Of a DNA stretch of 64,000 nucleotides, positions 1 to 63,473 are shown in pieces. How positions within the stretch are numbered: the first letter of the stretch is position 1; each line of letters opens with the position of its first letter. A program made the position numbers and the translations under genes. Below the pieces are notes generated by a model. It saw only the letters and a list, made by a program, of their open reading frames with translations, ran no database searches and had not been told where the DNA came from. Origin of the DNA: an uncultured Planctomycetales bacterium (GTDB lineage Bacteria > Omnitrophota > Gorgyraeia > Gygaellales > Profunditerraquicolaceae); contig CAZJFL010000003.1 of assembly GCA_964545575.1 (NCBI GenBank), forward strand, positions 55,000 to 118,999. Reading direction: 5' to 3'.

Positions 1-570
1 GACGGCAATCCACATCGCAAGCTGTATAAGCAATACCAGCGGGGTCTCAAGGCCACTAGCCACAAAAATCCAGATTGAAGTGGAAAGAGAAAATAAAAAC
101 GCTGCTATTGCCGCCATGGCCTTTCCCAGACGGCTCGCCACATAGATGTAAAAAATAATAAGGGCAATGATGATACAGGCGACGTTAAAAAGACAAGAAA
201 AAATATACAAATTATTCATGCCTGCAATTAAATAGCCGGCTGCCATGCACAATAAATACAAAAAATTAGTATACCCCTCTACCCTCTCCCCCGGATTAAA
301 AACAAAACCGTTGCCCATGGCCAGATTCTGAGAATAGCGGTAACCAATGAATGCGTCCTCATTTCCCCAGGCATGCCCCGCCGAATCAGCATGAAAGTAA
401 CCAAAGAAAATATGGATAATCACGCCGGTGATTAAAATTAAAAGGCTGGCTAAAAGTGCAAGGGTATATCGCTTGCGCCGCAGAGAGAAAAATAATATAC
501 CTGTGAAAAAAAAGATAACTAAGGCGACAATCATTTTTATAAAAAAATAGCCAGTAAAAAAATGTGCCAT
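1..570 (-). CDS. GT-C type (ArnT/PMT-like) membrane glycosyltransferase; 5' part only, the gene continues past the window start
   Basis: Hand-translated minus strand from ATG at 570: MAHFFTGYFFIKMIVALVIFFF..., several TM segments and a GHAWGNEDAFIGYRYSQNLAMGNGFVFNPGE loop typical of GT39/GT83 enzymes. No stop within the window, so it is absent from the ORF track. Confidence 0.4.
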   Translation of the reverse strand, partial: MAHFFTGYFFIKMIVALVIFFFTGILFFSLRRKRYTLALLASLLILITGVIIHIFFGYFHADSAGHAWGNEDAFIGYRYSQNLAMGNGFVFNPGERVEGYTNFLYLLCMAAGYLIAGMNNLYIFSCLFNVACIIIALIIFYIYVASRLGKAMAAIAAFLFSLSTSIWIFVASGLETPLVLLIQLAMWIAV

Positions 571-710
571 GTCACCTTTCCCGTTTTCTGATATAATCAG
601 AAATGGTCAGTTACAAAACAGCCCGCGTATTTTTACCAGTTACTCTCCGATTATGTGAAATTGAGCCCGCCTCAAGCAATAAATCATGGGATTCCTATCA
701 CGGGCTTTAT

Positions 711-1883
711 TCAGCAGCGGCTATTACTTTTAATTACGCTGACAACGGCATCAATTACATCCCGGACATCCCTGTCACTCAGCTTGGCAGAAATCGGCAA
801 AGATACCGTCCTTTTAGAAATCCATTCCGCATTCGGAAAATCTCCCCACCGGTAACCCAGTTCCTTTTGGTAATAGGGGTGTAAATGCAGGGCGATATAA
901 TGCACGCCTGTGCCAATATTGCGCTTTGCCATGGCGTCTAAGAAACCATCCCGGCTGATTTTAAGCCTGTTGATATCAAGCAGCAGGGTGTAGAGATGGT
1001 ACGCATGCCTTATGCCTTTCTCGACAGGGGCCGGTATGAATACAGGCAGGCCCCCGAATGCTTCATTATATTTATTCCAGATCTCCTCTCTCCTCTTCCA
1101 GTATTTATTTATCCGGGGCAATTGATGGATGCCGATAGCAGCCTGCATATCCGTCATATTATATTTGTATCCGGGATATACAACTTTATAGTGCTTATAT
1201 CCTTTGTCCGAGAATCTCTTCCAGGCATCCTTGGTCATGCCCTGCAGCGCCAGTATCTTTATTTTCTCATCGTATCGCGGATTATCCGTAATCACCATTC
1301 CCCCTTCTGCGGTGGTGATATTTTTGGTAACATAAAAACTGAAACAGCCGAGCTCTCCGAAAGTCCCGGCCTTCCTGCCGTGATATTCCGCCTCAATCGC
1401 GTGCGCGCAATCCTCCACTACTTTAAGGGAAGATTTTCTGGCAAGCTTCATAATCTCATCCATATTAGAGGGGCGGCCGGCAAAATGCACCGGGATTATC
1501 GCTTTTGTCCTGCGGGTAATTTTTCTTTTTATGTCTTCGGGTTCGATGTTAAGCGTATCTCTCTGGCAATCAACAAAAACAGGCCTTGCCCCTGCCTGTA
1601 TAACGGCATTGGCAGTGCTGGCAAATGTCATCGCAGGCAAAATCACCTCATCCCCGCGTTTTGCCCCGATGACCAACATAGAAAGATGCAGCGCAGCAGT
1701 GCAAGAGCTTAAAGCTGCGGCGAATCTGCTGCCTTTGTATTTCTTAAACATCTCCTCGAATTTCTGGACTCTGGGGCCGGTGCCTACCCAGCCGGAGTCT
1801 AGCGTAGCCAGGACTTCGTCGATTTCCGGGCGCTCAATCAGGGGAGAGCCGAAAATTAAAAAATCTTTTCTCTTTTTTGACAT
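711..1883 (-). CDS. DegT/DnrJ/EryC1/StrS family PLP-dependent sugar aminotransferase
   Basis: 390 aa. The fold-type I aminotransferase pattern (GDEVILPAMTFASTANAV, VVEDCAHAIEAEY, SFYVTKNITTAEGGMV) matches nucleotide-sugar aminotransferases. Confidence 0.85.
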   Translation of the reverse strand: MSKKRKDFLIFGSPLIERPEIDEVLATLDSGWVGTGPRVQKFEEMFKKYKGSRFAAALSSCTAALHLSMLVIGAKRGDEVILPAMTFASTANAVIQAGARPVFVDCQRDTLNIEPEDIKRKITRRTKAIIPVHFAGRPSNMDEIMKLARKSSLKVVEDCAHAIEAEYHGRKAGTFGELGCFSFYVTKNITTAEGGMVITDNPRYDEKIKILALQGMTKDAWKRFSDKGYKHYKVVYPGYKYNMTDMQAAIGIHQLPRINKYWKRREEIWNKYNEAFGGLPVFIPAPVEKGIRHAYHLYTLLLDINRLKISRDGFLDAMAKRNIGTGVHYIALHLHPYYQKELGYRWGDFPNAEWISKRTVSLPISAKLSDRDVRDVIDAVVSVIKSNSRC

Positions 1884-5271: not shown

Positions 5272-7219
5272 TTTTTCCGCCCTCCTCTGTCTTTTTTTCC
5301 GAAGGATCCTTGCCGTAATACTTTTTGCTGTAATAATAGTAATAGGCGCTCATGCCAATCTCGGGGGTAACGTTATTTAAGATGATGCCGGCAAGCGATT
5401 TTTTGCCCCTGACGCTCTCTATCTGTATCTTTGACCTGCGCAGCGCCAAACGTGAGGTAGAACCTGCCCGGTAGACTAACAAGACGCCGTCTACTTTAGG
5501 CAATAGAATAGAAGGTTCGCTTACTGCCAATACAGGAGAGGTGTCCATGAGCACCACATCGTATCTGTTTCTAAAATACTGCAGAGTCTCATCGAGTTTA
5601 GAGGAATTAAACAGGGCTATGGTATTGGGGAAAGTTGAGCCTGCAGTGACTACATTGAGATTATTCAACCAGGGTTTCTCGATTATCCTATCGATAGAGG
5701 TAGAGCCCAACATTATATCTGTAGCGGTTTTTATGCTGGCCTCGATGCTTATTTTGCCCGTCAGAATATCGGTCAGGCCATTCTCCTTCTCTTTCAGGCC
5801 GAAGCTCTTGTGTATATGGGCCCTGCGGGTATCGGCATCGACCACCAGGACCTTATAACCCATCTGCGCCATAATCACACCGAGGCTGGAGACAATGACG
5901 GTTTTGCCCTCCTCCGGCTTGGAGCTGGTGATAAGAATTATATTATTCTTTATCTTTCCGTTTTTACCAAAAATCACCTGCAGGTTTACGCCTAAAAGGC
6001 GAAAGGCTTCAAGAAACAAAGAGGTACGGTCGGACTTTTCCAGATCAAGGATATACGTAGGCCTTAAGTCTAGAGCCATGTTTTCTTTTTTGAAAAGAGT
6101 CCAGTGCTTCTTTTTGCCACTCCTCTTCTCCTCCTCCTCATAATACTCTGTGCAGTAAGGAATAATTCCCACCACGCCTACTTTTACGAAAGTTTCAATA
6201 TCATCCACCCTGCCGATGGAAGTATCCAAATTCTCGGATACCAATGCCGTAGCAACGCCCAGAACTAAACCCAAGACTAGCCCTATTAAGTAATTCTTTT
6301 TCTTATCGGGCAAATACGGGGTTTTAGGCATTATAGCCGGGTTGATGATGACAATATTATCCAGTTTCTCCGCTTCTCTGATCTGGGCGGTCTGGAGCTG
6401 TTGTTTTAAGGCATTGTACAGGGTCTCGTTAATCTTGGTATCCCGCTGCAGGATACCATATTCGAATTCCTCTTTGGGCAATGAGTTAAGTTTCTGCTTT
6501 AATATGGATCTTTCCTCTTCCATGTTGACTAAAAGAGGGTATTTGGGCGTAAATCTGGTTGAGAAATCCGTTATCTTGTCATCCAAATCCCGAATCTGCT
6601 GCATAATGCTCGCTGCTACACCTACCGCACCCTGGGTGGTAAGAACACGCAGCCTCTCTTCCTGTTCCTTTAATTTTTCCGAAACATTGGCTAGCGTAGT
6701 CTCGATAAAAATCCTTACATTACGCGTGCGCTCATTCTTCTGCTCCATGTTTATCTCTTTAAATGCCTGGGCCACGCCGTTGGCGAAATCCGTTGCTTTG
6801 GCGGCGTCAGTAAAATAAGTGTAAAGCCGTATCATGCTGCTTTTTTCTATTTCGACCGCCGAAACCTTGCTGGCCAAATCACTGACTATCCGCTCCGCCT
6901 CTCTTTTGGCAACGCCATCTTTTACCCATCCTAATTCTCTGGCGGCTCTTTCTATGACCGGGCCGGTAACCACCTGTCTTATGTAATCGGAAAGCTCATA
7001 AGGCTGCATGTACGAAGAGCGGCTCGGAAATATCACATCGGAAGGGAGCGAGGTAGACTCTATCTTTAAAAGGACCGTTGCCCGATAAATTGGCACCTGA
7101 AAGTAAGTATAAAAAAAAGCACTGAAAAAAACTACCAGGAAGGCAAGAAGGATTTCCCATTTTCTCTTTAAGAATATTGTCGAGTAATCCCTCAGGTTTA
7201 GTTCGTAAAATTTCTCCAT
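5264..7219 (-). CDS. wzc: Polysaccharide co-polymerase / tyrosine autokinase (Wzc/GumC-like, fused chain-length determinant plus BY-kinase)
   Basis: 651 aa. N-terminal TM, a long coiled-coil periplasmic region, a second TM, then a P-loop ATPase (SSKPEEGKTVIVSSLG, VLMDTSP). The C-terminal Tyr-rich tail SAYYYYYSKKYYGK is typical of BY-kinases. Confidence 0.8.
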   Translation of the reverse strand: MEKFYELNLRDYSTIFLKRKWEILLAFLVVFFSAFFYTYFQVPIYRATVLLKIESTSLPSDVIFPSRSSYMQPYELSDYIRQVVTGPVIERAARELGWVKDGVAKREAERIVSDLASKVSAVEIEKSSMIRLYTYFTDAAKATDFANGVAQAFKEINMEQKNERTRNVRIFIETTLANVSEKLKEQEERLRVLTTQGAVGVAASIMQQIRDLDDKITDFSTRFTPKYPLLVNMEEERSILKQKLNSLPKEEFEYGILQRDTKINETLYNALKQQLQTAQIREAEKLDNIVIINPAIMPKTPYLPDKKKNYLIGLVLGLVLGVATALVSENLDTSIGRVDDIETFVKVGVVGIIPYCTEYYEEEEKRSGKKKHWTLFKKENMALDLRPTYILDLEKSDRTSLFLEAFRLLGVNLQVIFGKNGKIKNNIILITSSKPEEGKTVIVSSLGVIMAQMGYKVLVVDADTRRAHIHKSFGLKEKENGLTDILTGKISIEASIKTATDIMLGSTSIDRIIEKPWLNNLNVVTAGSTFPNTIALFNSSKLDETLQYFRNRYDVVLMDTSPVLAVSEPSILLPKVDGVLLVYRAGSTSRLALRRSKIQIESVRGKKSLAGIILNNVTPEIGMSAYYYYYSKKYYGKDPSEKKTEEGGKNV

Positions 7220-19963: not shown

Positions 19964-20379
19964 TTATTATCCTTCAATAAAAAAGCCCACTCTGTATCCT
20001 ACTAGAATGGGCTTATAGTTTTTTATTGCTTTGTTTCGGCAACTGACTGCCATACCCCATCTTAGGGGGTTTAGGCTCTAGAGTTTTGCGCCCCATCCTT
20101 TCGGATAGTTTACCTTTATCGTCTTACATATAAAGTATAACAGCTCTTGTGCAACTTGTCAACTTACACATCACTGTATTTTAGAGGCACATGCCCCGCC
20201 CTCTGCGGGGATGTCCCTAAACCTATCGGTACCTTGCCCTAAATGATGGGCAAGTATCCCACCGCCTGTGGGAATGGTTTATGCACCCTGCAATTCAAAA
20301 AATTAACCAAGAGATAAGCTGCCTAATCTATTGACTTGGAGCTCTTAATATGCTATTTTATGGGCTAAAGGAGAAACTT

Positions 20380-31659: not shown

Positions 31660-31660
31660 T

Positions 31661-31760
31661 TTCTCCTCCTTTTAATGAGCAGACAACTTATGGAACACGA
31701 AGTGCGACATAAGTTGTAGCATCGCTATTAAATTTCTATTGCGTCTGCGAATTAATATCC
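31661..31760 (-). promoter_or_regulatory. Conserved structured 5'-leader element, copy A (before the superoxide reductase operon)
   Basis: Shares the blocks cctcctNttaatgagcRgacaaYttatgga / gacataaRttgtagc / ctatt.aa.t / gcgtcYgcgaatt with copy B. Two stems show compensatory changes. Confidence 0.55.
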
Positions 31761-31833
31761 CGCCCGCTCATACTTTGCTTGCGGGATAAAACAACAGATA
31801 ACTGTCGTGCTGCGCACTCCATAAGTTATGGCC

Positions 31834-31995
31834 TCACTTAATCTCCTCGAACATATCTTTACCTACGCCGCATTCCGGACAGACCCAGGAATCGGGAAGA
31901 TTTTCAAAAGCTGTTCCGGGCGCAATCCCCTGCGTAGAATCCCCGACTGCCGGATCATAAATATACCCGCAGACCGTGCAACGGTATTTTGCCAT
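31834..31995 (-). CDS. rub: Rubredoxin
   Basis: Not in the ORF track (53 aa). Hand-translated: [53 protein letters not shown], with the two CxxCG knuckles. Confidence 0.85.
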
Positions 31996-32004
31996 TACCC
32001 CCCC

Positions 32005-33192
32005 CTATTTAATTTGCCGGGCAAAGTTTTTCCCGAATTCGTAACAGCGCTGCATTTCATTTTTATCCGGGACATATTGAACGCCTAAACCCGGCTGGGT
32101 AACTTCTATTCCCGTGTCTTTGAGAATATTTTCTATATTCTTAACTGCGCCCCCTGCCCAGCCAAAGGAACCAAAGACAGAGGCAATCCTGTTTTTAGGC
32201 TTTAAGCCTTTTAAAAATTCCAGGAACCCCGCAATAGAAGTAAGCATATCATTATCGTGGGTAGAGGAACCGATGATGTAGCCCTGAGCATCCAGCATCT
32301 CCTTAATCACCTCGGTGCGGTCAGAGGCAGCGATGTCGAAAAGTTTTAGGCTTATGCCGGAGCTGATCACTCCTTCGGCGATGGCCCGAGCCATCTTCTC
32401 GGTTGCGCCCCACATAGTTTCATATACCACTACCACTTTAGGCTTAGTCTGATTGTTCCCCCAGGAAAGATAGGCATTGATAATCTTGCCGGGGTCTTTA
32501 CGCCAGATAATCCCGTGGCTGGGCGCGATCATCTTAATAGGAATGCCCATTTTCTTTACTTCTTCGATCTTCTTTACTACTAAAGCGCTTAGCGGCCAGA
32601 GGATATTGCCGTAATATTTTGCCGCCTCCTCCATCAGCGCGCAATGATCAATTTCATCATCGAACCTTTCGGAGGTCGCGTAATGCTGGCCAAAGGCATC
32701 GTTAGGCAAGAGAATCGCGTCTTCCAAAACGTAAGTAAACATGCTATCCGGCCAGTGCAACATCGGCGCCTCTAAAAAAGTAAGCGTCCTTTTGCCTAAT
32801 TTTAGCTGATCGCCGGTTTTAAGGGTCTGGAAATCCCAGTTTTCGTAATAATGCTTATAAAGGCCTTCTTTACATTTTGCCGTGCCTAAAACTTTGGCTT
32901 TGGGGCATAATTTCATCAGCTCTGGCATCGCTCCGGAGTGGTCAGTCTCTACGTGATTGGCAATCACATAGTCGATTTTTTCCGGAGGAATAATTTCCCT
33001 GATTCTTTCGATGAGCTCTTCTGAAAAAGGCCCGTAAACCGTATCCACCAAGGCAACCTTTTCATCCAGGATTAAATAAGCGTTGTAGGTGGTGCCTCTT
33101 TTAGTAGTGTAGGTGTGGCCGTGAAAATTCCGCACGTTCCAGTCTACCGCCCCCACCCAGAATATATTTTCTGCAATCTCTGTCTTTGCCAT
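32005..33192 (-). CDS. Flavodiiron protein (A-type flavoprotein; rubredoxin:oxygen/NO oxidoreductase)
   Basis: 395 aa. N-terminal metallo-beta-lactamase-like diiron domain (HVETDHSGA) and C-terminal flavodoxin domain. Confidence 0.85.
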   Translation of the reverse strand: MAKTEIAENIFWVGAVDWNVRNFHGHTYTTKRGTTYNAYLILDEKVALVDTVYGPFSEELIERIREIIPPEKIDYVIANHVETDHSGAMPELMKLCPKAKVLGTAKCKEGLYKHYYENWDFQTLKTGDQLKLGKRTLTFLEAPMLHWPDSMFTYVLEDAILLPNDAFGQHYATSERFDDEIDHCALMEEAAKYYGNILWPLSALVVKKIEEVKKMGIPIKMIAPSHGIIWRKDPGKIINAYLSWGNNQTKPKVVVVYETMWGATEKMARAIAEGVISSGISLKLFDIAASDRTEVIKEMLDAQGYIIGSSTHDNDMLTSIAGFLEFLKGLKPKNRIASVFGSFGWAGGAVKNIENILKDTGIEVTQPGLGVQYVPDKNEMQRCYEFGKNFARQIK

Positions 33193-33207
33193 ATTTTATT
33201 GCCCCTT

Positions 33208-33966
33208 TTAATAACCGATAAAATTTTCTATTCTTAAATTTTCCTTCTTTGCCCCTGCCTCTAAACTAACAGCCTGCATTGCCTCGACCATTTTAGGGGG
33301 CCCGAAAATAAATAAAATGCGGTTTTCTAGATCGGGGATCTCTGCCCTGATAAAATCCTTGTCTATCCTGCCGAATATACAGGACTTATCCTTAGGCTGG
33401 TAATCTGTAACTAAGTAGCTTATTTTAAAGTTTTTATTCAATGAACGCCAGTAATCTAATTCTTTTTTAAAGGCGATTTCTTCTTCCGTGCGGTTAGAAT
33501 AAATCAGGCAGAGATCCGTCTCTATTTTTTTATCCGCTATATACTCGATTATGGAAATGACCGGAGTAATCCCTATCCCGCCGATAAGAAAAGCTATTTT
33601 TCCATATTCTTCTTTAAAGACGCAAGCCCCTAGCGGCGCGTTTATTACGATTTCATCCAGAGGCTTTAAGTCTTTTAGCGCTTGCGAAAACTTGCTTTCG
33701 CTTAATCTTTTAGTCACCTCGACATAGTCATGAGCGGGAGAACAGGAAAAAGAAAGGTATTTATTCAGCTCTTTATTGCCGGGGTTATCCGGATCAAAGA
33801 CCAGCTGCAGGAACTGCCCGGGGATAAAGCTTATTTTTTTCTTCGGCAGAAAGCGGAAACTTTCTACACTTGGCGTTCTCCTGATGCGCTGGCTAAATTT
33901 TACCTTTAATAATCCCATTCTTCTCGTTAAGTAATCAGCGATTCGTTGAAGCACCGGAACTGCCAC
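33208..33966 (-). CDS. FNR-like FAD/NAD(P)-binding oxidoreductase (probable reductase partner of the rubredoxin/FDP system)
   Basis: 252 aa. FAD-binding (RxYS-type, SFSCSP) and NAD-binding (LIGGIGITP) motifs. No Fe-S domain. Confidence 0.6.
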   Translation of the reverse strand: MAVPVLQRIADYLTRRMGLLKVKFSQRIRRTPSVESFRFLPKKKISFIPGQFLQLVFDPDNPGNKELNKYLSFSCSPAHDYVEVTKRLSESKFSQALKDLKPLDEIVINAPLGACVFKEEYGKIAFLIGGIGITPVISIIEYIADKKIETDLCLIYSNRTEEEIAFKKELDYWRSLNKNFKISYLVTDYQPKDKSCIFGRIDKDFIRAEIPDLENRILFIFGPPKMVEAMQAVSLEAGAKKENLRIENFIGY

Positions 33967-34336
33967 ACTTCATCATGCCCTTGTTGCCTTCAGGCATCAT
34001 CCCCTGGTTTTTGGCCGCGGCTTGGCCTTGCATCCGCATCATACCTTGCCCCTGCCGCTGCATCATGCCCGGCCCCATCATCCCCGGCCTATGAGACCCC
34101 ATTATCTTGTGCATCATCGGATACATCATCGCTGGCCTTCCGGTAGAAAGCGTATAAGCCCCTGCCGAAAAAACCAATGCTGCCGCCAGCCAAAGCAGCG
34201 CTGCCACCACATAACCAAAGGCTTTTAACCCTTGCGTTTCAATTTTACGCATGGCAAACAAAACAAAGAAACTGATCGTCAATAACACTGCTGCCGGAAT
34301 AACCGCAAACAACCCCGCTATCCTTAAGCCTTCCAT
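33935..34336 (-). CDS. Membrane protein with Met-rich (MxxM/MMxxM) C-terminal tail, possibly Cu(I)-binding
   Basis: The probable start is MEGLRIAG at 34336, preceded by AAGAGGAGGTG. Two TM helices, then PAMMYPMMHKIMGSHRPGMMGPGMMQRQGQGMMRMQG... Confidence 0.45.
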   Translation of the reverse strand: MEGLRIAGLFAVIPAAVLLTISFFVLFAMRKIETQGLKAFGYVVAALLWLAAALVFSAGAYTLSTGRPAMMYPMMHKIMGSHRPGMMGPGMMQRQGQGMMRMQGQAAAKNQGMMPEGNKGMMKCGSSGASTNR

Positions 34337-34440
34337 CTGCCACCTCCTCTTAATGAGCGGACAATTTATGGAGCTCTCAAAGAACGACATAAATTGTAGC
34401 TCAGAGCTATTTAATTATTGAAGCGTCCGCGAATTTACAC
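34337..34440 (-). promoter_or_regulatory. Conserved structured 5'-leader element, copy B (before the Met-rich protein/FNR-like/FDP/rubredoxin operon)
   Basis: See copy A. It lies immediately before the SD GAGGAGG of the MEGLRIAG start. Confidence 0.55.
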
Positions 34441-34625
34441 TCCCTTGCCGCCTTACACCAGTCAACACAACTGGGTAACCTCTCCCTGCAGGCCAAACTC
34501 TTGCATCTCGGGCACCTTGCCTTTATTTCATCGGAAAAAATCTCTATCTCGTATCCGCAGTCCGGACACTCTAGCAGCTCTGCTTTTAGTTTCCGATCAT
34601 CCTGCCCGGGGCATTTATTGATCAT
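34407..34625 (-). CDS. Small zinc-ribbon (Cys-rich) protein
   Basis: 72 aa with CPDCGY...CPRCKS...C..C. Confidence 0.35.
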   Translation of the reverse strand: MINKCPGQDDRKLKAELLECPDCGYEIEIFSDEIKARCPRCKSLACRERLPSCVDWCKAARECKFADASIIK

Positions 34626-34626
34626 T

Positions 34627-35031
34627 TTAATTTTTCCTTAATAAAGAAGCTAAGTTTATAGATTTTAACTGTGAAAACACATATTTTTCTATGGAACCTA
34701 TTTTTCTTCTTAAGGCGCAGGTATGCACATTGGAACAGGGTACTTTCTTAAAAACACACTCATTCAGGCTAAGCGGCCCCTGGAAAATCTCTATTAAATC
34801 TACCAGGAATATTTTACGGGCCTCTTTGGCTAACCGGAAACCTCCGCCCTGGCCTTTGTGAGATTGCAGGATCCCTTTTTTATTTAAGACCTGCAGGATC
34901 TTGCGCAAAAAAGGCCGCGGCATCTTTAAATCTTCAACTAGTTCAGAAACCGGGACTGTTTTTTTCTTGTGCCTAGCGATAAAACATAACGCCCTTAAGG
35001 CGTAATCTGTGTCTCTGGTGATTAATTTCAT
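34627..35031 (-). CDS. Rrf2-family (IscR/NsrR-like) transcriptional regulator
   Basis: 134 aa. wHTH (DYALRALCFIARH...VPVSELVEDLKMPRPFLRKILQVL) plus three clustered Cys (CVFKKVPCSNVHTC) that could ligate an Fe-S cluster. Confidence 0.8.
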   Translation of the reverse strand: MKLITRDTDYALRALCFIARHKKKTVPVSELVEDLKMPRPFLRKILQVLNKKGILQSHKGQGGGFRLAKEARKIFLVDLIEIFQGPLSLNECVFKKVPCSNVHTCALRRKIGSIEKYVFSQLKSINLASLLRKN

Positions 35032-35039
35032 TACCCAAA

Positions 35040-35075
35040 TGATACCATATTTGTATCATTTGTCAAGGAAAATTT
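35040..35075 (-). promoter_or_regulatory. Promoter (TTGACA-N17-TATCAT) with embedded palindromic operator TGATACaaatatGGTATCA directly before the Rrf2 start; likely leaderless, autoregulated
   Basis: Minus strand reads TTGACAaatgatacaaatatggTATCATttgggtaATG. The perfect 7-bp inverted repeat lies between -35 and -10. Confidence 0.45.
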
Positions 35076-63334: not shown

Positions 63335-63473
63335 AAACTCTAAACCCTAAACACTAAACCCTAAACAAATTCTAATTTATAAATTCTAAACTTGCCAGTT
63401 TAGGACATTAGGATTTGGAATTTGGGATTTGTTTAGAGTTTAGGATTTCGGATTTAGGATTTAACATTATTTG
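63335..63473. repeat. Imperfect inverted array of heptamer repeats (CTAAACC/CTAAACA x4 ... GGGATTT/AGGATTT x~6)
   Basis: Left arm ctaaaccctaaacactaaaccctaaac; right arm aggatttggaatttgggatttgtttagagtttaggatttcggatttaggattt. Roughly self-complementary, lying between the MGMT and uvrC genes. Confidence 0.7.

Follow-up and report, generated by a model that had tools for sequence, protein, structure and literature searches.

We analysed a stretch of 64,000 nucleotides (nt) of contig CAZJFL010000003.1 (assembly GCA_964545575.1), hereafter the window, in which two related motifs stand directly before oxidative-stress genes. The minus strand carries all genes of this region. Read 5' to 3', an Rrf2-family regulator and a 72-residue Cys-rich zinc-ribbon open reading frame (ORF) are followed by the first motif (copy B), a Met-rich two-helix membrane protein, an FNR-like oxidoreductase, a flavodiiron protein, rubredoxin and the second motif (copy A); superoxide reductase (SOR), which has a rubredoxin-like N-terminus, a PNPOx-like protein, glutaredoxin and thioredoxin reductase (TrxR) complete the order. 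Copy A ends 12 nt before the ATG of SOR and copy B 13 nt before that of the Met-rich protein. The first-pass annotation of this DNA had read the copies as a conserved RNA structure, possibly a riboregulator of oxygen-detoxification genes. The fold is real and under constraint. Each motif is probably the right-hand unit (S) of a decayed element without an ORF, and these elements belong to a multi-copy family of intergenic palindromes in a clade of Candidatus Omnitrophota. The left-hand unit of this family is called E' here (its class, E) and the hairpin between the two units C; loci outside the window carry L numbers, and the features of the window are collected in Table 1.

Table 1. Features of the two motif copies, their surroundings and the wider window.
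Feature	Position	Strand	Evidence
Copy A, S unit (R-type)	31672-31755	minus	covariance-model match 74.2 bits, fold, alignment
Copy B, S unit (R-type), GCGG/CCGC P1 variant	34350-34437	minus	covariance-model match 69.1 bits
Copy A C hairpin, ATCCCGC...GCGGGCGGGAT, then ATATTAATT; terminator-like	31757-31787	minus	sequence, DNA fold of 31756-31840, C hairpins of other loci
Copy A decayed left-hand unit E', starts TAAGTGAGGCCATAACTTATGGAG	31788-31840	minus	sequence, weak antisense model match 31798-31829
Host sequence right of copy A: AAGGAGGAGAAA (ribosome-binding site), then ATG	31660-31671	minus	comparison of empty and filled sites
Last nine codons and stop (KFADASIIK*) of the 72-residue Cys-rich ORF, read within copy B	34407-34436	minus	translations, junction alignment
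Rrf2 regulator gene	34627-35031	minus	Pfam Rrf2
Sigma-70-type promoter TTGACA-16-TGnTATCAT; not part of an element	35039-35066	minus	upstream of Rrf2 gene; 11/12 matches (promoter scan)
Cys-rich zinc-ribbon ORF	34407-34625	minus	
Met-rich membrane protein gene	33935-34336	minus	
c-di-GMP-I riboswitch aptamer	20035-20124	minus	73 bits against a gathering score of 35
Long imperfect palindrome, unrelated to the E/S family	63340-63470	plus	

The two copies were 82% identical over ~110 aligned nt, each unit being ~85 nt long, and a 21-mer spanning the 3' arm (CATAARTTGTCYGCTCATTAA) occurred in the window in copies A and B only, where shuffling expects 0. Both pairs of stems quoted in the first-pass annotation were confirmed exactly: the inner stem is ACAACTTATG/CATAAGTTGT in copy A and ACAATTTATG/CATAAATTGT in copy B, and the outer stem is GCAGAC/GTCTGC in A and GCGGAC/GTCCGC in B. 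The outer stem extends beyond what had been described, with TTAAT-TC-GCAG pairing with CTGC-TC-ATTAA, and the final GT of the inner stem is common to it. Each copy forms a long hairpin (z = -3.0 and -2.4) that is interrupted by a 2x2 TC/TC internal loop; the distal stem differs in sequence from one copy to the other. Copy A is a three-way junction, composed of P1 (TTAAT-TC-GCAG/CTGC-TC-ATTAA), a long AT-rich P2, and P3, which reads ACAACTTATG-TC-GCAC(TTC)GTGT-TC-CATAAGTTGT. Scoring of a covariance model at every position of the window recovered only copies A and B, and ACAAYTTATG-like 10-mers gave no third copy, being present in the window at the chance rate (11 found, 8.5 expected). Two candidates for a third copy were rejected: site 12110 is coding-like and unrelated, and a 16.8-bit model match at 63354-63443 is a different palindrome, in which CTAAAC-like repeats face GTTTAG-like repeats between two minus-strand ORFs.

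Homologues were sought in metagenomes with an exact pattern that fixed only the 3' arm, or most of it, and the tail; genes in this set are simple ORF calls. At least 118 stretches matched, and among the matches listed there were 106 distinct sequences, including the window and genome copies. We imposed one structure on 63 distinct sequences among those listed: the outer helix TTAAT-TC-GCAG/CTGC-TC-ATTAA, a variable second hairpin P2, and a 10-bp inner helix with TC/TC loop and distal hairpin. In this structure 94% of cells were paired, none of 500 shuffles equalled the observed covariation, and slid controls were far off too. Double changes were found at 11 pairs. The four free positions of the 3' arm covaried cleanly with the unconstrained 5' arm, the pairs being 36-75 (AU 36, GC 25), 38-73 (CG 39, UA 19, GC 3), 42-69 (CG 33, UA 23) and 10-79 (AU 58, GC 5); covariation was also seen at all four pairs of the small P2. 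The test is a fair one, because the 5' arms lay outside the search pattern.

A wider search with the covariance model gave ~208 matches in 1.24 Mb. Among 178 distinct units the TC/TC loop was intact in 163, and the helices varied in complementary arm pairs, the outer 5-bp helix (P1a) existing in 5 such versions and the next helix (P1b) in 16. These figures, like those for the 63 sequences, count sequences and not independent events, since subfamilies exist. The two TC/TC loops are the sole invariant unpaired bases, and no conserved junction resembling a ligand pocket was seen. Near-identical units, variable loops included, were present at different loci (L092 and L130; L065 and L080/L150). The claim of a conserved structure thus survives on both counts that could have overturned it, further homologues having been found with changes that are compensatory rather than non-compensatory. 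The region matched no Rfam family at the gathering score, or even at E <= 10. A peptide encoded in the unit was considered and discarded; the covarying positions would be non-synonymous, and there are stop codons in several frames.

The history of the locus can be read from its relatives. In 42 species-level loci around homologues of the Met-rich protein, the element was present only in L009, L014 and L026. Related species whose Met-rich proteins are 61-76% identical (L167-L173) have the full gene order from Rrf2 to TrxR with tight junctions: that between rubredoxin and SOR reads ...GAGAAGATT-TAA-AAAGGAGG-ATG of SOR, and the 3' end of the small Cys-rich ORF runs into the start of the Met-rich gene at ...AATTAAAAGGAGGTGGCAAATGG. 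No covariance-model match was found in the three of these syntenic operons that were scanned (L167, L170, L172). In the window the flanks are as in the relatives and an element lies between them, GAGAT being followed by TAAGTGAGG...GCTCATTAA and then by AAGGAGG; the right junction of copy A agrees with the empty site TAA-AAAGGAGG-ATG. Because the junctions of the syntenic relatives are empty, copies A and B must each have been inserted into what was ancestrally a single operon, at a TAA/TTAA immediately before a ribosome-binding site. Another such comparison, between ribBA-like and ribH genes, has a filled site in L085 and an empty one in L150. Elements have TAA/TTAA at both ends and empty sites a single TAA/TTAA, with the boundary uncertain by 1-3 nt, the empty sites being from other species. 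Upstream of the Met-rich gene of L003 (~6790-6885) stands an element that has these outer ends, TAAGTGAGG...GGGATCATTAA-AAGGAGG, but another interior, and that shares CCCGACAGCTAAGCGCTTCG with L009; its sequence suggests that further families may use the same termini.

Most of the weaker model matches came from a diverged relative that lies 50-150 nt upstream on the other strand, and on the gene strand a module could be recognized that runs from stop codon through E' (an antisense unit), the C hairpin and S to the start codon. E' begins TAA(A/G)TGA, S ends ...GCTCATTAA, and the two are inverted homologues; C is a GC-clamped hairpin, (A/T)CCC...GGG(T/A), whose 14-17-bp arms fall into discrete sequence families. 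Of 140 S-class units 96 were sense and within 30 nt of a start codon, mostly at 0-20 nt: in ~26 cases S ended 0-2 nt from an ATG lacking a Shine-Dalgarno (SD) sequence, and in ~57 cases 9-20 nt from the ATG, with GGAGG right after TTAA. Among E-class units, 28 of 50 had the upstream stop codon in their outer end. Reversed arrangements also exist (eight E units before start codons, seven antisense S units beside stop codons). Where modules are dense, one sits at every first to third gene junction of the contig; elsewhere there is about one extra module per 24 kb. C hairpins of ~100-105 nt with a conserved interior also recur across loci and contigs (L085 4242-4344 and 6446-6548, L078, L100, L155, L131); these ~103-nt forms have arms as in the ORF-bearing copies described below, and their interior is not convincingly alignable to the ORF; they may be what is left of the ORF or else a distinct insert with a function of its own.

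Both window copies are incomplete versions of this module. At copy A the C hairpin is a two-arm remnant, such arms enclosing a GIY-YIG ORF in full-length relatives. The rubredoxin stop TGA (31834-31836) lies inside the outer end of E' (TAAGTGAGG), and this TAA(A/G)TGA stop arrangement recurs at 29 other units. Copy B has lost E' and C, and at the same junction L067 and L105 carry an intact module (E', C, S). The window junction, TGTAAAT followed by TCGCGGAC, fits a deletion between TAAAT (E' start) and TTAAT (S start). As a result of the E'-C deletion the Cys-rich ORF reads nine codons into copy B; its orthologues have other C-terminal ends.

The full-length form of the module runs from the stop codon through E', the C5' arm, a gene for a single-domain GIY-YIG protein of ~85 residues, the C3' arm and S to the ribosome-binding site and ATG. 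Five small ORFs (79-92 residues) in the fetched loci matched PF01541 only (E = 3.5e-9 to 3e-17), and GIY-YIG ORFs lay exactly between C arms in L084, L085, L087, L174/L175, L176/L177, L178/L179 and L180/L181, which represent at least five independent loci. The most complete arrangement is that of L084, with an antisense unit, a C5' arm having its own SD, an 85-residue ORF, the C3' arm, an S unit and the next gene; at the filled site of L085 the C arms CCCAGCACTAATTTT/AAAATTAGTGCTGGG surround a 79-residue ORF, and in L087 the ORF stands between CCCTTGACATTTTGCCC arms and adjoins an S unit. Both E'/S units and C arms were present in L084, L085, L174 and L176. A profile search gave 4040 similar small proteins, not only from Omnitrophota but also from Patescibacteria and further phyla. 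For four relatives of the L084 protein the surroundings were compared, and each gene lay between unrelated, co-oriented neighbours: PqqD and radical-SAM genes, an unannotated ORF of a type IV pilus (pilMNO) cluster and secretin, AcrB-like and RND adaptor genes, and MerR and glycosyltransferase genes. All four had the arms CCCCGCCCTTTTG...CAAAAGGGCGGGG, two of them together with E' and S and two as arms only.

Arm sequences differ by nuclease lineage (CCCCGCCCTTTTGG, CCCAGCACTAATTTT, CCCTTGACATTTTGCCC), and the contig of L085 carries one ORF-bearing and two ORF-less C elements with identical 15-bp arms. The pattern is that of an autonomous element with non-autonomous derivatives, nuclease and arms co-evolving. 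In L180 (2960-3330) and L181 a GIY-YIG gene with CCCCGCCCTTTTG arms stands at the 5' end of a tRNA gene with GGGGCGTG on both sides, a repeat that may be a target duplication.

The family is not specific to stress genes. Units precede genes for ribosomal proteins L35, S14, L6, L25 and S6, IF3, RF1, NusA, RpoA, GyrA, PNPase, trigger factor, enzymes of the His, Pur, Fab and Aro pathways, and pilins, redox proteins being few. They were also found ~100 nt past 5S ribosomal RNA (rRNA) in L054, L126 and L139, and in L141 a unit precedes a 16S promoter. In L080 (4252-4651), L150 (364-772) and L071 the module is reversed, an antisense S being followed by a sense E whose final base is the first of the ATG, and it stands between a flavin mononucleotide (FMN) riboswitch and the downstream gene; the repeat is evidently tolerated inside a riboswitch leader. 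We conclude that this is an intergenic element family whose gene context is not function-specific. The contig of L141 also contains a group I intron in its 16S rRNA gene (467-721, minus strand).

The first-pass annotation had further held that the covariation argues for RNA rather than a protein-binding DNA palindrome. Covariation cannot decide this, because a hairpin of single-stranded DNA (ssDNA) yields the same signal. Mismatches of the G.T and A.C types in the anchored stems numbered 36 and 16; once 19 at an ambiguous position were set aside they numbered 17 and 15. Both strands of both window copies had equal DNA folding energy. As mismatch types are equal and both strands fold equally well as DNA, RNA selection of one strand is not supported.

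The reading we favour, as probable, is that copies A and B are S units of decayed elements of this family. It stands on a widespread family, a covarying fold, a fixed module polarity, empty syntenic junctions and a nuclease nested between lineage-specific C arms. In the mechanism we propose, units would fold as ssDNA hairpins, and the nuclease would recognize the invariant TC/TC loops together with the flanking helices; such recognition, by analogy with the Ssn/NTS and RAYT/REP systems, might underlie the spread of the units and the homogenization of their sequences. Module polarity may reflect the need of a promoter-less nuclease gene for read-through from host operons. Two elements would then have landed in an ancestrally continuous, Rrf2-headed oxidative-stress operon, at TAA/TTAA 5' of a ribosome-binding site. 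Being transcribed, they may contribute a hairpin resembling a terminator at copy A and, beside each ribosome-binding site, a stable stem-loop at the 5' side; such generic RNA effects are plausible. The elements would not sense oxygen or redox state, and stress-specific sensing is very unlikely.

We suggest more tentatively, and as the less probable part of our account, that E'-C-S modules and their GIY-YIG genes of ~85 residues form an undescribed class of ~0.5-kb mobile elements. Its nuclease would recognize structured ssDNA (hairpins, three-way junctions, TC/TC loops), insertion would be of fixed polarity between a stop codon and the next ribosome-binding site, every first to third junction would have been colonized in some Omnitrophota, and the host may use the modules as RNA 3' and 5' ends. 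No description of these repeats in Omnitrophota was found in the literature searched, and they are apparently an undescribed variant of nuclease-associated intergenic hairpin repeats.

Several points weigh against the favoured reading. The 64-kb window has no nuclease gene, and for this genome the link depends on the copies being members of the family. The nuclease-bearing loci examined number only ~7; L178 and L180 have C arms without E'/S units, so that the E/S and C-nuclease parts could be separable elements that often co-occur, and three GIY-YIG ORF matches in two distinct loci (L115 with its duplicate L158; L046) had no unit detected nearby. The nearest solved structures to the proteins are UPF0213 (1zg2, 1ywl) and SLX1, and membership of the Ssn clade (cd10448) is unproven. 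The consensus of the SRM repeats associated with Ssn, HGTCWYN(0-2)YYVSBRHN(0-5)WNVSBRGN(0-2)RNCYNB, matched 4 times in 1.4 Mb, against 5-6 matches in shuffled sequence, and in or near no unit. A target-site duplication could not be fixed to the nucleotide, the empty sites being those of other species. In low-density genomes (the window, L009, L014, L026) the few copies are all beside oxygen-stress genes, a context that carries little weight since these loci were fetched around such a gene. The strong polarity and the gap of 0-2 nt to SD-less start codons would fit a role at the RNA level as well.

That role is the substance of the strongest alternative, which we consider unlikely: a generic host RNA module that is not stress-specific, with E' and C as a 3' stabilizer or terminator of the upstream cistron, S as a protective or translation-positioning 5' structure of the downstream one, and the nuclease gene as a passenger or historical vector. 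S might also mark where the transcript is processed, so that the ribosome-binding site or AUG comes to stand at a new 5' end. Polarity fixed relative to transcription and the close abutment of S on start codons speak for it. So do the GC-clamped C hairpins followed by a T-rich tract (TTTAATT), unit sequences that are better conserved between species than the neighbouring proteins, and the many S-preceded genes that are plausibly highly expressed. It has to contend with the lack of a bias of G.U over A.C on the transcribed strand, the equal folding of both strands, the absence of an Rfam match, the reversed cases, among them the module in an FMN-riboswitch leader, and close relatives whose same operon has no module; the nuclease association and the lineage-specific arms would be superfluous to it. 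Two further ideas were set aside, a resemblance of UGCUCAUUAA to BoxA (NusB/E), which the context does not support, and tRNA-like punctuation, which is pure speculation, the units giving no tRNA call.

A riboregulator in the narrower sense of the first-pass annotation, a redox-, oxidant- or thermo-sensing leader dedicated to oxygen-detoxification operons, is very improbable. Its attraction lay in the covarying fold and in the genes headed by both window copies, and other copies do precede SOR (L095, L113), glutaredoxin (L114), the Met-rich protein (L009, L014, L067) and a flavodiiron protein (L026). Against this, ~95% of copies are before unrelated genes, housekeeping genes among them, or rRNA or non-coding DNA, the same junctions of syntenic operons lack the element, the invariant unpaired bases are confined to the TC/TC loops, the element is one arm of a larger palindromic module that in full length bears a nuclease gene, and the association with oxygen genes in low-density genomes is largely one of ascertainment.

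The chance that the motif is a double-stranded DNA operator or palindrome bound by a transcription factor, for which the product of the neighbouring Rrf2 gene would be a candidate, is smaller still. The Rrf2 gene does lie immediately upstream and the motif does contain 10-bp inverted repeats, but the spacing of the arms varies (15 and 17 nt in the window, 8 to >40 nt across the family), the spacers are themselves self-complementary with unrelated sequences, copies stand at genes outside any single regulon, no promoter overlaps the motif, and Rrf2-headed syntenic operons lack it. Integron attC-like sites bounding gene cassettes are equally hard to credit: folded imperfect palindromes with unpaired spacers between co-oriented ORFs, and an outer-helix AA/TT that recalls the AAC/GTT of attC R boxes, would suit them, but the units flank core housekeeping genes and rRNA operons, sequence inspection showed TTAAT/ATTAA or variants as outer helix and no GTTRRRY/RYYYAAC cores, the associated gene is a GIY-YIG nuclease, and no integrase was noticed, though no profile search for one was run.

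Redox regulation of the genes is more likely to reside in the Rrf2 promoter and regulator than in the repeat units. The promoter upstream of the Rrf2 gene is near-consensus with an extended -10 and was the sole strong one in a promoter scan, which found no sigma-70 promoter within either leader; a by-eye search for sigma-54 or ECF-type boxes, or a promoter in the C loops, gave nothing consistent. The Rrf2-first gene order is conserved in L161-L173, and Rrf2 heads the oxidative-stress cluster in every syntenic locus. This promoter is likely that of the ancestral single operon.

Two neighbouring genes merit mention. The Met-rich membrane protein has two predicted helices, a highly conserved N-terminal half, a Met-rich tail and no Pfam family. 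A search with it gave 112 clusters, in which the matches with a named source were all Omnitrophota, and a few fetched genome loci were labelled as other phyla; the protein places the organism in Candidatus Omnitrophota. The protein is embedded in oxygen-detoxification gene clusters and could be a methionine-based scavenger of oxidants or metals. The Cys-rich zinc-ribbon ORF (CPGQD...CPxCG...CPxC...CxDWC) is small and conserved, and is invariably flanked by the Rrf2 and Met-rich genes, in some cases with a Fer4 gene intervening after Rrf2. Elsewhere, the c-di-GMP-I riboswitch aptamer of the window has a counterpart downstream of an rRNA operon in L139.

These results remove a false lead, in that covariation between two copies in one genome, which looked like a stress riboswitch, was the signature of a repeat family, and they serve as a warning that screens for intergenic covariation in metagenome-assembled genomes will catch repeats acting at the DNA level. 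They point to an apparently uncharacterized nuclease-repeat system in an uncultured phylum, provide a clean natural example of insertion between a stop codon and the next ribosome-binding site, and offer candidate structure- and sequence-specific ssDNA nucleases with defined substrates.

Among known systems, riboswitches and structured 5' leaders resemble the units in their place 5' of a ribosome-binding site and in their covarying fold, but the units share no downstream gene function, Rfam family, conserved junction or pocket, and they can also follow genes or rRNA or lie in antisense orientation. Free-standing GIY-YIG homing endonuclease genes, such as the seg genes of phage T4, likewise sit between conserved co-oriented host genes at sites that are empty in relatives; Seg proteins, however, are >200 residues long with DNA-binding domains, their homing is to a single allelic site, and hairpin repeats in high copy are lacking (PMC2988022). 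Miniature inverted-repeat transposable elements (Correia/CREE, RUP, ERIC) offer a parallel in ORF-less derivatives that keep the ends of an ORF-bearing element, as with the L085 arms, in terminal inverted repeats, in AT-rich targets at gene boundaries and in co-transcription with neighbours. The present elements differ from them in having no DDE transposase partner, in that each 'terminal inverted repeat' is a structured hairpin, and in their non-random orientation.

REP, BIME and REPIN repeats with their RAYT partners are closer. They too are high-copy extragenic palindromes in inverted pairs around a linker, lie transcribed between co-directional genes, keep their hairpin by compensatory change and flank the gene of a partner enzyme. 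REPs are 20-40 bp with GTAG or CGTC tags (PMC3733652), whereas the present units are 55-90 nt with internal loops and no terminal GTAG, and contain CGTC only as part of TTACGTCG, one inner-stem allele. The partner found inside the modules is a GIY-YIG protein rather than an HUH/Y1 transposase, no Y1_Tnp profile search having been run, and polarity relative to genes and abutment on stop and start codons are far stricter here.

The nearest parallel is Ssn, a single-domain GIY-YIG protein of ~94 residues flanked by NTS/SRM hairpin repeats that exist in hundreds of copies; Ssn bind and cut the repeat only as ssDNA, on one strand only, and not as double-stranded DNA or RNA, and the insertion-sequence (IS)-like SRM-ssnA-SRM layout and its parallel with REP/RAYT were pointed out by the authors of that work (PMC11893778). 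In common with Ssn/SRM (Neisseria dRS3/NTS; GIY-YIG cd10448) the elements described here have a single-domain GIY-YIG protein of ~85-95 residues, a gene flanked on both sides by directional hairpin repeats that are multi-copy elsewhere and mostly intergenic, apparent co-evolution of nuclease and repeat, and an IS-like architecture. They differ in their Omnitrophota host, in E/S units of 55-90 nt with two TC/TC loops each and often a three-way junction, in separate C arms of 14-17 bp, and in an exact seat of fixed polarity between a stop codon and the next ribosome-binding site. The recently discovered Ssn/NTS principle, the pairing of very small GIY-YIG enzymes with hairpin repeats of the genome, would thereby be extended to far more elaborate substrates.

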